From Methanoregula sp. (lineage in GTDB: Archaea; Halobacteriota; Methanomicrobia; Methanomicrobiales; Methanospirillaceae): 26,605 bases of DNA. The stretch's first letter is position 1; each line of letters starts with the position of its first letter. The stretch spans positions 1 through 26,605 of the forward strand of contig JBDKTL010000033.1 of NCBI GenBank assembly GCA_039698055.1, given 5' to 3'. Positions 21,969-26,605 of this stretch are shown piece by piece. The notes under the pieces are model-generated. The model was given only the letters and a program-made list of their open reading frames with translations, ran no database searches and was not told the origin of the DNA. Made by a program: the position numbers and the translations under genes.

Positions 21969-23738
21969 CTAGTTGATCCTCTGTATCCTCCCGTCAGATG
22001 TTTCATTCACCGGTTGCGGCATTGACCCCACGTAAGCAACAAGGGCATCGACATCATCCGGCCCGTACGTCATATTCTTTCCTTCGGTAAATGTCGTGTA
22101 CCCATCACCGCCTCCGGCGAGATAATCTGTCAGGGAAACGGTGTAGCTCGTGGTCGGGTTTAACGGGACACCGCGTATCTTCACTTCAGTCACCCTGCTG
22201 CCCGCAGGTTGTGCGGCATCCCAGGTATACACCAGTCCCGAGACAGCGAGATTGTGCGGGGGGATTGGCGACTCCCACTGCCGTTCGAGTACCTGAAGGA
22301 TCTGTTCGCCGGACAAGGTCACGGACAGGATTGTGCCGCCAAACGGCTGGATGGAATACAGGTTACCCCACGTAATATTTCCTGCTGACAGGTCTGCACG
22401 AAGGCCCCCGGAAGTATCAAATCCCCCATCGGCGTTCATCGCGGCCCGCTGCCCGTCCGCAACCAGATCCCCCAGCGCCGATTCCCCGGCAGGGGTCTGG
22501 TCCCGGGTAATACTCATGGCAGCAACGCTGATCATCCGGTTCACTACAGGGCCAAGGACATGTTCGTCCGCTGCAAGGAACGCACTCGCAGCGGGATCCG
22601 GGCTGGTGCCGGGAGGCTGGTCCGCATAGGTCGGGATAATCCGTGCGGATTTCTCCACAATATCGCCGCTTGCCCGGTCGATCGTGAGATCGATATCGGC
22701 ATACCCCATGCTGTACATGTACGCCTGCGTGACGAGCACAGGGTTACCTCCGGCATTTGCCAGGTAGGCGTTGGTAAACTCATGGGTATGGCCGGACAGC
22801 ACGACATCGACATCGCTGTCAAGACGGGGAATAATCTGGGCCACCCGCCCGGTCACATTCCCGTTCGCCCGCGTCGGGCCATCGTACGGGGTCTGGTTCC
22901 CGCCTTCATGAAGAAGGACAACGATTGCATGAACACCCTGCTTCTGGATTTCCGGGATATACCGGTTGATGGAATCAGCTTCGTCCAGAAACGTCACACC
23001 CTCGACTTCGGCAGCGTTCTCGAGCATGGGTGTGTTCTTTGTATCTGCGCCAATGAAGGCAACAGGTACCCCGCTGACATTTCGCAGGGTATAGGGTGGA
23101 AGGACCGGCGTATTGTTGACCGTCCAGATCACGTTTGCGCAGACATAACCGATTTTCGTGCCGGGGTACGGATCAACAAGGTGGGTAATATTTGTCGCCC
23201 CATTCCCCCCGTATATTTTTCTCAATAGTTCCGGTACGCCTTTATCAAACTCATGGTTGCCCGGTGTCGCAACCATATTACAGGAGGCATCAGGGGAGCC
23301 CGACCCGAAACTACAGTACTGATTTGCATAACTGTTGAAAAACAACAGTGTCGGCTCGTCAAGGAGCAGCCCGGACTCCGGAGGCGATGCCCCGACGACA
23401 TCCCCGGGCAGGGCAATGATGGTGCCACCTGCATCCCCGGATGCCATCGCCGATTTGAGATAGGAAGCAAGGACCGGTGCACCCCCTGCCGGGCGTTTGT
23501 TGAGTTTCTGTCCCGGGGGGAGCTGCCCATGGAAATCGTTTACCGCGAGAATTTTTACGTGAACAGCGGAGTTTGCAGGCGATACCGGGACAGGGCCGGG
23601 AAGATACAAGGAGAGTAAAATTGGTGCCAGTATGAGAACACAGAGGATGCAGAGCCCTATTAAGATCTGCAGCCCGAGGGGGATCCTGTCCTGCCGGGAA
23701 TCGGGTGCCATAATACTGGATCTTTTACCGGTGATCAT
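21969..23738 (-). CDS. Membrane-anchored 5'-nucleotidase / UDP-sugar hydrolase
   Basis: NDFHG, GD, GNHEFD, GHTH, ESALGDLVAD, GGLR and GGDGY motifs, with an N-terminal hydrophobic anchor. Confidence 0.95.
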   Translation of the reverse strand: MITGKRSSIMAPDSRQDRIPLGLQILIGLCILCVLILAPILLSLYLPGPVPVSPANSAVHVKILAVNDFHGQLPPGQKLNKRPAGGAPVLASYLKSAMASGDAGGTIIALPGDVVGASPPESGLLLDEPTLLFFNSYANQYCSFGSGSPDASCNMVATPGNHEFDKGVPELLRKIYGGNGATNITHLVDPYPGTKIGYVCANVIWTVNNTPVLPPYTLRNVSGVPVAFIGADTKNTPMLENAAEVEGVTFLDEADSINRYIPEIQKQGVHAIVVLLHEGGNQTPYDGPTRANGNVTGRVAQIIPRLDSDVDVVLSGHTHEFTNAYLANAGGNPVLVTQAYMYSMGYADIDLTIDRASGDIVEKSARIIPTYADQPPGTSPDPAASAFLAADEHVLGPVVNRMISVAAMSITRDQTPAGESALGDLVADGQRAAMNADGGFDTSGGLRADLSAGNITWGNLYSIQPFGGTILSVTLSGEQILQVLERQWESPIPPHNLAVSGLVYTWDAAQPAGSRVTEVKIRGVPLNPTTSYTVSLTDYLAGGGDGYTTFTEGKNMTYGPDDVDALVAYVGSMPQPVNETSDGRIQRIN

Positions 23739-23948
23739 TTAAGTGTTGAGTTTTCTCAAGGAGCAGACGGGGGTACCGGTTTTAAACCCCATTTCCCTTT
23801 GTCCTGTGCCCGGCCAGATCCCCGCCATTCCCCTGAAGATACCGGGAGGAGTTCGGGCAGGAATTTTCCCGGGGGTTCTTGTATGGATATCCAAAACCGG
23901 ATGCTATCAGGACAGTCGGACAATCGCCCGGGTGGTTGATGCGTTTGT

Positions 23949-24509
23949 TCACCGGAGCCCCGGCCGTGGGAAGACGATTAAAAAAAGATTAAATTCAGCC
24001 GGTATAAGGTTCTCCCTGATCGCATCCGTATGGATCCGGTACTTGATCTTTGACAGGTTGCGCCGGATATCCCAGCCAAGCTGTTTACGCTCTTCATCCT
24101 TGAGTCGCTGGAATTCCTTGATAAGATAAAGTTTGAATTCTACTGAGATCCAGGACGCGAATTCGTATGCGATATCCTTGTGGGCGTACGTCCCGCCATA
24201 CCGTCCCGGTTTAGAGATGATGCCAATGGCTGATGTCCGTTCAATCCACTGTTTGGGAGTAAGGGTAAAACTGTTGAGCCCGGCAAGTTTTCTAAACCCG
24301 TCGAATTCCACGGGTTTAAAATCCGGATTATTGAGACGCTCCCAGACTCCCAGAAATTCTATCGTATTGCGATTCCGTAGCCAGTTCCGGATTAAATCAT
24401 CAGTATTGTCCGGATCTTTATATCGTGCAATATCGGTAATGCAGATATAATCCTCCTCATTGAGTGTATAAATGGAAATTTCATTATCCAGCACATGGAT
24501 CTTTGTCAC
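23949..24509 (-). pseudogene. KilA-N domain DNA-binding protein, probably C-terminally truncated
   Basis: DYICITDIA, IRNWLRNRNTIEFLGVWE and GRYGGTYAHKDIAYEFASWIS motifs. After IHTDAIRENLIPAE the frame runs into a T-rich, non-coding-looking tail. Confidence 0.75.
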
Positions 24510-24608
24510 AATCGTTCCCGGTCCAATTACCGGTAATTCTGGAGATAAAGACCCGGGCGAAGAGTGTGAAAGTGAATTTGTTCCGCGTCACACCCGATTG
24601 AAAAATCC

Positions 24609-24709
24609 GGGCAGTGGACAAAAAAGTACCGGTTTTTACGGAAAGTTTTACGAGAAAATTATACAGGAAAAAAGATCCCGGAAATTGCGATAGTTTTGTC
24701 CAACTGCCC
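24609..24709. repeat. 101-bp element family B, copy 2
   Basis: Arms GGGCAGTGGACAAAA / TTTTGTCCAACTGCCC (inverted, one bulge). Core at 24640-24684. Confidence 0.88.
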
Positions 24710-24728
24710 AAAAAACGATCTGGCTTTT

Positions 24729-24829
24729 GGACACTATGGACACCATTTCCGGTTTTCCCGGAAAGTCTTACGAGAAAATTGTACAGGAAAAAGATTCCGG
24801 AAATCGTGAAAATGGTGTCCATGGTGCCC
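24729..24829. repeat. 101-bp element family B, copy 3
   Basis: Arms GGACACTATGGACACCATTT / AAATGGTGTCCATGGTGCCC (18/20 inverted). Core at 24760-24803, 120 bp after copy 2. Confidence 0.88.
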
Positions 24830-25123
24830 GGACAGGTCCCGCACCCACTCCCAAAATCTCGGGCGGTACCAGCACGTCCCGGTGCCCGCTCCTGTTCCGG
24901 CAATTGCCAAACGCCCCACGCTCACCGGCTCCCAGCTGCACCATTACGCGAGAGCCGGCCAGTCCCCGGGTTTCGGAGGGGACAAAAGTGGGGCCCGGGC
25001 TTTCCGGTTCGGAGTGGCTGAGCCGGTTCGCAGCTGCATTGAGTTGATGCGGATTGTTTTAAAACCCTGCAACAAAAAGCGATTATATCATCAGGCGAAT
25101 ACAACGTACAATCAGGAATTCCT

Positions 25124-25297
25124 ATGAGTGCTGTTGAACAGTATGTAGTTGATGAAAAGGGCAATAAGGTCGCAGTCATCCTCCCGCTCGCCGAATACCA
25201 GCACCTCAAGGAAGATCTTCATGATCTTGCCATGGTTGCCGAGCGGCGGGACGAAGGTACGATAAGCCTTGCCGAGTTAAAAAAACGCGTAATGTGA
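25124..25297 (+). CDS. Type II antitoxin (RelB/Phd-like, 57 aa; not in ORF track)
   Basis: Manual translation MSAVEQYVVDEKGNKVAVILPLAEYQHLKEDLHDLAMVAERRDEGTISLAELKKRVM*. Ends 9 bp before relE. Confidence 0.85.
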   Translation: MSAVEQYVVDEKGNKVAVILPLAEYQHLKEDLHDLAMVAERRDEGTISLAELKKRVM

Positions 25298-25306
25298 GCA
25301 GGGTTG

Positions 25307-25573
25307 ATGGAACCGTATTCACTCTCTTTTAAAAAGGGCGTAGAAAAAGATCTCCGGAAAATCCCCAAAGAAATTCTCCAGCACATTTTTGATCATGTTG
25401 AAAATCTGGTGAACGAACCGGTTCCTCACGATGCTTACAAACTTGCCAGTACAGAAAATCTTTACCGGATTCGCGTTGGCGATTATCGTGTGATCTATCA
25501 GGTACTTCACGTGAATCGCGAAGTAACGGTGATATATATCCGGCACCGGAGTGTGGCATACCGGGGATTATAG
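25307..25573 (+). CDS. relE: RelE/ParE family toxin
   Basis: VEKDLRKIP...KL...LYRIRVGDYRVIY...IRHRSVAY. Confidence 0.92.
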   Translation: MEPYSLSFKKGVEKDLRKIPKEILQHIFDHVENLVNEPVPHDAYKLASTENLYRIRVGDYRVIYQVLHVNREVTVIYIRHRSVAYRGL

Positions 25574-25709
25574 ATCGGCAATATCCTTTCTTCCACCATC
25601 CACTCTCCCAAAAGGTTCGGTAAGTGCATTTCTCCGAGCCTTAAAAAACGCCGGCACCGGCCAGACCCGTTGAATTGGTGATAAAAATTAGTGATCACTA
25701 TCTGTCCTG

Positions 25710-25810
25710 TGTCACATGTGTCACATTAACCCAATTTTCCGGAAAGTCTTACGAGAAAATGGTACAGAAAAAAAAATCCCGGAAAATGCCCTCAATGTGT
25801 CCCGTGTGCC
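25710..25810. repeat. 101-bp element family B, copy 4
   Basis: Core GGAAAGTCTTACGAGAAAATGGTACAGAAAAAAAAATCCCGGAAA at 25741-25785. Arms GTCACATGTGTCACATT / AATGTGTCCCGTGTGCC (13/17 inverted). Confidence 0.85.
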
Positions 25811-25969
25811 GGCCCGAACATTGTTCGGCGGGTCTTGAGCGGGGAACATGGGCATGACTCTCTGCTAGGGAAAACAATATACAGATTCCCCCCACCCAAT
25901 TTATCATTTTGATTTTTCTTCTTTGTTTAGTTCATTGTTGAGATTATTTACGATAGATATGCTGATCAA

Positions 25970-25995
25970 TAGTATATTTATACAGATATAAATAT
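25970..25995 (+). promoter_or_regulatory. TATA-box candidates upstream of the Cys-rich peptide
   Basis: TATTTATA and ATATAAAT lie about 40-60 bp before ATG 26034. The region is AT-rich, so specificity is low. Confidence 0.35.
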
Positions 25996-26033
25996 GAGAA
26001 AATTAATAACGTCAGCGAACTATAATAGCATTT

Positions 26034-26330
26034 ATGCCAAAAAAGCCACTTTGGTTACAACTCCGAATTGCATATAAATATGCAACGAAAGAAGAGCAAA
26101 ATAAAATCAAAGAAATCACAGCATCAATTTTAACTAGAGAGGGTGTTCCAACAGATTGTCCAATTTCAGTAGTTGATGAGGCAAACCCCGATCCAAATTG
26201 TGGAAAAACACGTGCATGTCTCTGGGCTTGCTTAAATTCCTGTCAAACAAGTTGTAAGACAGGGGGTTGTCTTAGTAGTTATCATTGGATTGGGCCCGAT
26301 GAAAAGAAAAAGAGCAATAAAAAAATGTGA
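26034..26330 (+). CDS. Cys-rich putative RiPP precursor peptide (SCIFF/ranthipeptide-like core)
   Basis: Core CGKTRACLWACLNSCQTSCKTGGC, with Cys at 56, 62, 66, 70, 74 and 79. Immediately upstream of a radical SAM motif ORF. Confidence 0.7.
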   Translation: MPKKPLWLQLRIAYKYATKEEQNKIKEITASILTREGVPTDCPISVVDEANPDPNCGKTRACLWACLNSCQTSCKTGGCLSSYHWIGPDEKKKSNKKM

Positions 26331-26341
26331 AATATTATAAA

Positions 26342-26481
26342 ATGGCGCGACAACGGAAATATGGCCACATCTCTTTTATCATCACACCTCAGTGTAATCT
26401 CCGATGCAAATATTGTTTTCAAGGAAAAAAAGGATTATTAGAACCAATTCATACGGATTTTCAAGTAATTGAAAAATTTGT
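26342..26481 (+). pseudogene. 5' fragment of a radical SAM enzyme, interrupted at ~26482 (not in ORF track)
   Basis: Manual translation MARQRKYGHISFIITPQCNLRCKYCFQGKKGLLEPIHTDFQVIEKFV. It has a CNLRCKYC (CxxxCxYC) motif preceded by a hydrophobic strand and T. The frame closes at TGA 26504-26506, inside the presumed IS end. Confidence 0.8.
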
Positions 26482-26605
26482 GCTCTGTAGAAAACCTCAA
26501 CGATGAGAGAAAGTAAGAACCTATGAATGTTACAGACACTCATTTTGTTAGCGATTTCTTTCATCTGAATCAGGAATCTTCTCGCTTTGAGATCCCCGTT
26601 GAACT
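26482..26605 (-). mobile_element. End of a probable IS5-like insertion sequence (transposase C-terminus; element runs off window)
   Basis: The minus frame is open from the window edge: FNGDLKARRFLIQMKEIANKMSVCNIHRFLLSLIVEVFYRA. From memory, this resembles C-termini of methanogen IS5-type DDE transposases. Candidate terminal IR is GCTCTGTAGAAAACCTC. Confidence 0.65.

Follow-up and report, generated by a model that had tools for sequence, protein, structure and literature searches.

The contig JBDKTL010000033.1 of a Methanoregula sp. assembly (GCA_039698055.1; 49 contigs, 2.26 Mb, 93% complete) was analysed over its whole length of 26,605 nucleotides, which is called the window here. Its right-hand end carries a small AT-rich cassette of two genes. 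The open reading frame (ORF) of 98 amino acids at positions 26034–26330 of the forward strand is read as the precursor of a peptide made by ribosomes and modified after translation (RiPP), and the next ORF as the start of a dedicated radical S-adenosylmethionine (SAM) maturase; the cassette would have been acquired horizontally and then inactivated by an insertion sequence (IS) of about 1 kb. We put the probability of this reading at about 0.78. By analogy with characterised systems, the product probably contains Cys thioether cross-links.

The two genes are laid out as an earlier note on this DNA had described them. In the precursor, Cys42 stands alone in the N-terminal part and is followed by the ladder C56-x5-C62-x3-C66-x3-C70-x3-C74-x4-C79, which includes SCQTSCKT. 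The stop codon lies at 26328–26330, and 11 bp past it the ATG at 26342 opens the frame with a CxxxCxxC motif. The block is clearly richer in AT than its surroundings, with 35.8% GC in 26034–26480 as against 52.8% in positions 1–25700 of the window and 51.4% genome-wide. The locus had been delimited as 26034–26506, and all its features are present, but position 26506 ends a stop codon inside the IS and the native DNA ends at 26480.

Residues 1–38 of the precursor, MPKKPLWLQLRIAYKYATKEEQNKIKEITASILTREGV (26034–26147, +), align with the leaders of 12 other precursors. Residues 39–98, which together with the stop codon occupy 26148–26330 (+) and include eight Cys, form the core part as judged from alignments to other precursors. 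As a single query the peptide finds only itself among 5.8 billion sequence clusters, and among 1.84 billion representatives it finds itself and two long repetitive proteins (P0056 and P0057), judged spurious for their multi-stretch matches to residues 8–56. It matches no Pfam or NCBIfam family, the sole NCBIfam hit at E values up to 10 being an irrelevant one at 0.16. A search of 61 related genomes with the peptide gave one meaningful match, in a metagenome-assembled genome (MAG) of the same genus, the Methanoregulaceae MAG G031, whose peptide leader is 51% identical to window residues 4–38. Weak matches in G056 and G021 (E of about 0.003, internal stop codons) were disregarded.

A profile of five peptides retrieves 13 sequence clusters out of the 5.8 billion, a family covered by no curated model. 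Its leader follows the pattern P-[LMV]-W-x-x-L-R...Y/F-A...E-E and its core the motif C-L-[FWI]-x-[CG]-[LM]; M, P, W, L, R, A, E and C never vary across the 13 rows of the alignment (A4). The commonest core, C-x-P-S-G-C-[EQ]-S-x-G-x-T-G-G-C-x-P-G-T-A-C-L-F-T-C-L-Q-S, is present twice in one member. The natural cores hold 5 to 12 Cys in single or double repeats. In the window core, RACLWACLNS fits the family motif, and the tail of the peptide is rich in Lys. The SCIFF-looking stretch SCQTSCKTGGC pairs very weakly (2.5 bits) with the family segment gCesssstggC, or G-C-E-S-S-x-S-T-G-G-C, and apparently begins a second core repeat. In the Phycisphaerales precursor of the family, P0058 (L012, 4435–4797), a single leader precedes two tandem canonical cores, and the gene directly upstream encodes a DDE transposase.

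The assignment of the window ORF to this family comes from a leave-out test, in which a profile of the 12 other precursors was run against the 31,093 six-frame ORFs of the genome and returned the window ORF only (E 1.9e-15, 57.6 bits), with an alignment spanning leader and core through RACLWACLNS. A profile of bacterial precursors alone still matches the ORF at E 8.5e-13. By this profile evidence the window ORF is a member of a small and rare precursor family. The failure of single-sequence searches to find a credible homologue could suggest that the ORF and the CxxxCxxC stump arose by chance in AT-rich DNA and that neither is a gene. This view is already refuted by the leave-out profile and by a gene order kept in five of five loci, and an RNA contig that lies on the ORF also speaks against it.

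The RNA contig, of 273 nt, comes from metatranscriptome run X3 of the same study as the DNA runs, and matches 26062–26314 within the peptide gene at 100% identity. Nothing else from X3 falls on 25000–26605, neither on the toxin-antitoxin genes nor on the IS, though the IS is 10–20 times deeper in the DNA runs. This is modest evidence that the peptide gene, which is intact, is transcribed. The AT-rich region of 174 bp directly upstream of the cassette (25860–26033, +; 28.7% GC) is presumed from its composition to contain the promoter; the RNA contig begins only at 26062.

The second gene is preserved only in its first 46 codons and one nucleotide (26342–26480, +). The frame reads MARQRKYGHISFIITPQCNLRCKYCFQG... 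and includes CNLRCKYCFQG, with the cluster motif CNLRCKYC. It matches Radical_SAM of Pfam (PF04055) at E 3e-4 and 21.4 bits, which is under the cut-off of 29.5 because only 46 codons are left. Against the profile of its own family (A1) the stump scores 30.8 bits over profile positions 3–26, and it aligns with the N-termini of the family, including the segment past the cluster motif (...VIEKF as compared with ...VIDxF). From these alignments it belongs to the radical SAM superfamily and to a distinct family of enzymes of about 350 amino acids.

An intact copy of the pair is found in G031, where a Cys-rich peptide of 143 amino acids is followed after 22 bp by an uninterrupted radical SAM gene of 349 amino acids starting MKNSTADFILSPNCNLKCKYCFQG. 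The G031 enzyme scores 54.5 bits to Radical_SAM, and its AlphaFold2 model, built from a 35-row alignment with a pLDDT (predicted local distance difference test) score of 92.4, folds as a radical SAM barrel. The family is well separated, with 40 proteins at E 1e-75 to 1e-241 and the next match only at 3e-17, and its proteins start about 13 residues ahead of CxxxCxxC. The best NCBIfam model is PapB (NF047865), which aligns over the full length with 116 (G031), 134 (P0007) and 118.5 (P0012) bits, under a cut-off of 340. The models for the SCIFF maturase, the CXXX-repeat maturase and other RiPP maturases score below PapB, and all maturase models remain far below their cut-offs. CteB gives the nearest structure in the PDB, whether sequence (E 6.8e-31, CteB residues 98–431) or fold (Foldseek E 4.6e-18, TMq 0.72) is compared, and the next by fold are the anaerobic sulfatase-maturating enzyme (anSME), ChlB and SuiB, which are nearly as close.

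The alignment covers only residues 98–431 of CteB and the proteins begin shortly before CxxxCxxC, so that the family has no N-terminal recognition domain. Neither a RiPP recognition element (RRE) at the N-terminus of the family proteins nor a PqqD-like neighbour (10 neighbouring ORFs in four loci) was found. The SPASM domain is defined by seven Cys arranged as CX9-15GX4C ... CX2CX5CX3C ... C, which hold two auxiliary clusters. There is no precomputed SPASM (PF13186) match in the 40 close members (P0002–P0041), and only remnants of the motif are seen: C227...G240...C245 is invariant, and CX2CX5CX3C is down to its last Cys, C295. In 35 aligned rows, Cys 227, 245 and 295 are conserved in all, Cys210 in 34, Cys315 in 33 and Cys236 in 28. 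Judging by anSME and twitch-domain enzymes, we take this pattern to fit one auxiliary cluster (Aux I); the family enzymes may hold a non-canonical second one.

The link between peptide and enzyme comes from gene order. The earlier note had proposed to look for peptide homologues beside radical SAM genes and for peptidase or exporter genes that follow. The former are found throughout: in five of the five loci with DNA (the window, L002/L011, L012, L013 and L016) the peptide gene lies directly upstream of the radical SAM gene on the same strand, with gaps from 11 to about 200 bp. As for the latter, no peptidase and no transporter or exporter gene is common to the loci among the same 10 neighbouring ORFs. 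A pattern scan with one genome per species gave three members of the enzyme family, one each in G031 and in MAGs of Phycisphaerales and Deltaproteobacteria. From the genome scan, L014 and L015 were left out (33–35% identity over 112 residues). When metagenomes were scanned with the enzyme alignment, 80 loci were kept, of which L016 alone belongs to the family; the remaining 79, at 26–30% identity, were left out. By sequence similarity the two-gene cassette thus forms a rare family, seen in Methanoregulaceae, Phycisphaerales/Planctomycetota and Deltaproteobacteria MAGs and in metagenomes. The intact G031 pair, the three bacterial or metagenomic loci and the closeness of the enzyme to CteB bear out the earlier proposal of a precursor and its maturase in a methanogen, with the maturase cut by an IS.

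A complex of the Deltaproteobacteria pair was predicted with two clusters and SAM riding along. Its score is 0.86 (runs of 0.91, 0.02 and 0.86), while the best of three controls reached 0.01; when the tool was calibrated, 58 out of 80 solved complexes came up to this mark, as did 2 of the 110 pairs that were mismatched. Contacts agree between runs by at least 24%, with a partner pLDDT of at least 48. In the best run, leader residues 17–31 (P-M-W-A-Q-L-R-V-A-Y) are predicted to contact enzyme residues 215–223 and 322–329, the latter lying in a strongly conserved C-terminal helix in which K321 and K327 are invariant. In the same model, core residues 82–87 (C-L-F-S-G-L, with the sole invariant core Cys) are placed in contact with N174, C210, C227, C245 and C295. 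The window peptide retains every contacted leader residue and the motif C-L-W-x-C-L. As a model, the prediction supports the view of the peptide as the substrate, and is not proof of it.

A mechanism can be proposed for an intact copy of the system. The leader helix, P-x-W-x-x-L-R-x-x-Y, would dock on the C-terminal helix and on the helix at about 209–220, which would replace an RRE. The Cys-rich core, and particularly the invariant Cys of C-L-[FWI], would then be placed at an auxiliary [4Fe-4S] cluster held by Cys210, Cys227, Cys245 and Cys295. The 5'-deoxyadenosyl radical derived from SAM would take a hydrogen from the acceptor residue, and the Cys sulfur would close a thioether ring, in a ranthipeptide- or sactipeptide-like chemistry.

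The peptide might be a substrate of the radical SAM enzyme in a reaction other than thioether formation, such as a C–C cross-link to the conserved residue of C-L-[FWI] that is aromatic or hydrophobic, an epimerisation, or a Cys oxidation as in anaerobic sulfatase maturases. The family enzymes remain far below the cut-offs of the thioether maturases (116–134 bits as against 340 for PapB, 74–87 as against 425 for the SCIFF maturase), anSME, ChlB and SuiB are nearly as near by fold as CteB, and the canonical CX2CX5CX3C of SPASM is missing, which points to a cofactor set unlike that of CteB and PapB. However, the top matches by sequence and fold are themselves thioether maturases (the PapB model and CteB), the sole invariant core residue is a Cys in cores that are Cys-rich throughout, and the model sets this Cys beside the cysteines of the auxiliary cluster. 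In thioether maturases, the substrate Cys is proposed to bind the auxiliary cluster. We regard such another reaction as unlikely. Far less probable still is that the peptide is a Cys-rich protein that stays unmodified and only travels with the radical SAM gene, as a regulator or as a partner binding metal or iron-sulfur clusters. Eight Cys within 60 core residues would suit such a protein, as would the missing peptidase or exporter and the transcription of the peptide gene, or at any rate its presence in the RNA library, despite the broken enzyme gene. But the earlier note had named a ferredoxin or Zn-binding family as a match that would speak against a precursor, and the ferredoxin, zinc-ribbon and metallothionein models match none of the peptides tested. 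The architecture is also that of a precursor, with 35–40 conserved N-terminal residues and a Cys part whose length and numbers of Cys and of repeats vary (88–143 amino acids in all, with a single or double core); the members differ in their Cys spacing, as metal sites seldom do, and the relatives of the enzyme are peptide maturases.

Several points weigh against the reading of the locus as a precursor with its thioether maturase. The window enzyme is only a stump, so that the relation of peptide to enzyme rests on the homologous loci. With no conserved peptidase or exporter beside the pair, nothing accounts for how the leader would be removed and the product exported, should either happen. In the canonical core the second Cys is that of PSGC, which the window peptide does not have; it also has a 29-residue extension, and is therefore a divergent member of its family. 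Of the three complex runs, one reached a score of just 0.02, the fold of the partner is uncertain (pLDDT 48–53), and the job deviated from the calibration in its custom alignments and its cofactors riding along; moreover, solved maturase-peptide complexes exist for CteB, SuiB and ChlB, and resemblance to these may explain part of the high score. The RNA support is a single contig from one study, for which DNA carry-over is unlikely. The absence of the family enzyme from 401 sampled genomes of the phylum, which counts towards a foreign origin, comes from a sample without the one known positive in which only five candidates were scored per genome. Finally, thioethers are preferred over another radical reaction by analogy with the nearest characterised relatives.

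The system is similar to SCIFF/thermocellin (CteA/CteB, PDB codes 5WGG and 5WHY) in that a Cys-rich peptide gene stands beside a radical SAM gene, CteB is the nearest solved structure, and the family enzyme keeps the CX9-15GX4C part of the SPASM motif. The window-type pair has no dedicated peptidase or exporter, and we know of none in SCIFF loci. The peptide, likened to SCIFF in the earlier note, matches no SCIFF model (TIGR03973), nor any other NCBIfam or Pfam peptide family. The leader is unrelated to that of SCIFF and, at about 38 amino acids, is long, as had been expected. In contrast to CteB, the family enzyme does not have the N-terminal domain, which we take to be the RRE of CteB, and its CX2CX5CX3C is reduced as described above. 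The SCIFF maturase model (TIGR03974) gives 13.9 bits with the stump, 74 with the G031 enzyme and 87 with P0007, under a cut-off of 425.

PapA/PapB, the system of the ranthipeptide freyrasin, provides the best curated model, with all 330 positions aligned by the family enzyme, and PapB is also among the top matches for the stump (22.7 bits). The scores of the family are nevertheless well short of the cut-off of this model, and its enzymes fall outside PapB membership. PapB is reported to form Cys-Asp/Glu thioethers in Cys-x3-Asp motifs; the window core has no repeated Cys-x3-Asp motif. The Paenibacillus PapB has an N-terminal RRE at residues 1–86, according to PMC12715619, unlike the window family, whose proteins begin 13 residues before CxxxCxxC. 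By sequence comparison the system therefore resembles the SCIFF and PapB ranthipeptide systems and belongs to neither.

The one characterised system of a methanogen is the CrpA/CrpC pair of Methanococcus voltae, for which PMC13692751 describes a radical SAM enzyme that installs thioether (ranthionine) links on a Cys-rich product with a conserved N-terminal recognition part. In the same text CrpC differs from the window family in having an RRE, a full SPASM domain and three clusters, and in acting on a large repeat protein. The CrpC model (TIGR04463) scores 17 bits on the stump and 41 on the G031 enzyme. The CXXX-repeat maturase (TIGR04115) is similarly short, with about 359 positions and no N-terminal extension, and the window core has four C-x3 spacings; however, the model gives only 22.6 (stump), 51 (G031) and 73 (P0007) bits, under a cut-off of 350, and no CXXX-repeat peptide model matches. 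Genome mining has predicted radical SAM-dependent RiPP clusters in Euryarchaeota generally (PMC12144867). In the full-text literature on ranthipeptides, archaea and Planctomycetota, PapB/freyrasin and ChlB/ChlA no description of the present family was found, though the gene lists of the mining studies (PMC12144867, PMC13692751) may include it.

Horizontal acquisition of the cassette, which the earlier note had called probable, is well supported by composition and distribution. Among 228 genomes of the taxonomic family the radical SAM gene occurs in one (G031), and the window genome has just the stump, so that the cassette is present in two of 228. In the phylum of the Phycisphaerales MAG the enzyme is found in one of 401 sampled genomes, that MAG itself. 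The cassette has 35.8% GC in a genome of 51.4% in the case of the window, and 34.2% in a genome of 50.7% in G031; the archaeal cassettes are thus about 16 GC points under their hosts, and the bacterial ones 3–8 points under. Its rarity in the family, together with a strong AT shift in the two genomes that have it, gives the cassette a foreign look. Copies of a 217-bp repeat flank it in G031, where a HicA/HicB pair is its neighbour, and the Phycisphaerales cassette adjoins a DDE transposase.

The G031 repeat is present in seven copies spaced by 1–2.8 kb and grouped in two clusters (L011 744–960, 2957–3174 and 4072–4232; L101, G604:C18:135936–141603). One cluster brackets the AT-rich peptide and radical SAM cassette together with HicA/HicB; the other brackets TPR and HEPN genes, with a PIN gene just upstream. 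The layout resembles a cassette array, yet the 15 kb inspected showed no recombinase.

The break in the maturase gene is due to the IS. The last 125 bases of the contig (26481–26605, −) are the left end of this element, with the terminal repeat TGCTCTGTAGAAAACCT and the C-terminus of a DDE transposase. The same repeat also ends contigs C2, C19, C35 and C40 of the genome and is internal in C11; C9, C31 and C41 carry variants of it. The element measures 998 bp in the C11/C29 copy, its minus-strand transposase matches DDE_Tnp_1 (E 1.2e-18), and its target duplication is 8 bp, as seen for the contig pairs C35/C32 and C19/C36. Because the terminal inverted repeat begins at 26481, only the 46 codons and one base are native; the gene is cut in codon 47, and the in-frame stop at 26504–26506 is IS sequence. 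The junction is borne by a unitig (25732–26508) in two DNA runs (X1 and X2) that may be the source of this DNA; none of their contigs passes 26480 free of the IS, though this is no proof that an uninterrupted allele is absent. The insertion is presumably recent, since the IS copies are 98–100% alike. The system is inactivated in this genome unless an intact copy resides in its unassembled part.

A tblastn search of the window genome with the intact G031 enzyme finds the stump only, and the assembly does not contain the remaining 300 or so codons. A search of this genome for the SPASM family gave five genes, each of them full-length and from another family. The contig ends C1, C32 and C36, which carry the other IS terminus, were considered as the missing flank and rejected, as they have no duplicate of the expected 8 bp and two of them pair with C35 and C19. 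The transposase frame (26382–26603, −) leaves the element and stops at 26382 within the stump, which would give the transposase a foreign C-terminal tail.

Radical SAM peptide maturases are sought as catalysts for constrained peptides, and the modified peptides of archaea are barely explored experimentally. The family offers a compact enzyme of about 350 amino acids, which apparently recognises a well-conserved leader without an RRE, and a small natural set of substrates with very different cores (5–12 Cys, single or double repeats). It also shows one cassette shared by bacteria and methanogens. Since the window system is broken, its value is that of a pointer to the intact pairs of G031 and of the Phycisphaerales and Deltaproteobacteria MAGs, and not of a working locus. 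More tentatively, and with the odds against it, the family might represent a separate class of radical-SAM-modified peptides, with a compact RRE-less maturase that holds one auxiliary cluster and reads the leader helix with its C-terminal helix. Its cassette would move between Planctomycetota, Deltaproteobacteria and methanogens, and in archaea would lie within repeat-separated arrays of accessory genes such as toxin-antitoxin pairs.

To the left of the cassette, the contig end carries typical accessory or mobile content: a KilA-N domain protein (23949–24509, −), a RelB-like antitoxin (25124–25297, +) and a ParE toxin (25304–25573, +). An imperfect palindrome of about 100 nt just left of the AT-rich block (25713–25808, strand not assigned; inverted repeat I2, direct repeat family D1) is one of three such elements that separate accessory gene units at the contig end, and may mark the boundary of the cassette. 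The others are at 24610–24715 and 24729–24829, so that palindromes separate the peptide cassette, the RelB/ParE pair and the KilA-N gene from one another; further ones lie at about 1014–1085 of the window, C37:60611–60667 and C2:4043–4105. They share the centre CCGGAAAGTCTTACGAGAAAAT...CCGGAAA, with variable outer stems containing GGACA/TGTCC, and only about 6–7 copies are present in the genome, with DNA fold z-scores of −2.3 to −3.7. Rfam gives no match in window positions 23500–26605, palindromes included, and no recombinase is seen among 10 window ORFs or among the 10 ORFs beside the second repeat cluster of G031. An integron reading of the repeats around the cassettes is not claimed.

Over window positions 25000–26508, the assembly graph branches at the palindromic repeat. 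In both DNA runs the unitig with the cassette (25732–26508) is about half as deep as the pieces left of it, with 321 as against 606–700 in X1 and 166 as against 342–420 in X2; the cassette may be present in part of the population, or the left flank may be common to another strain, contig depths not being copy numbers. A second repeat with a related terminal sequence, GGCTCTGTAGAATTCCTCAATG, ends contigs C5, C6, C17, C20 and C27 and occurs also at C28:13772, and both repeat elements together explain many of the assembly breaks.

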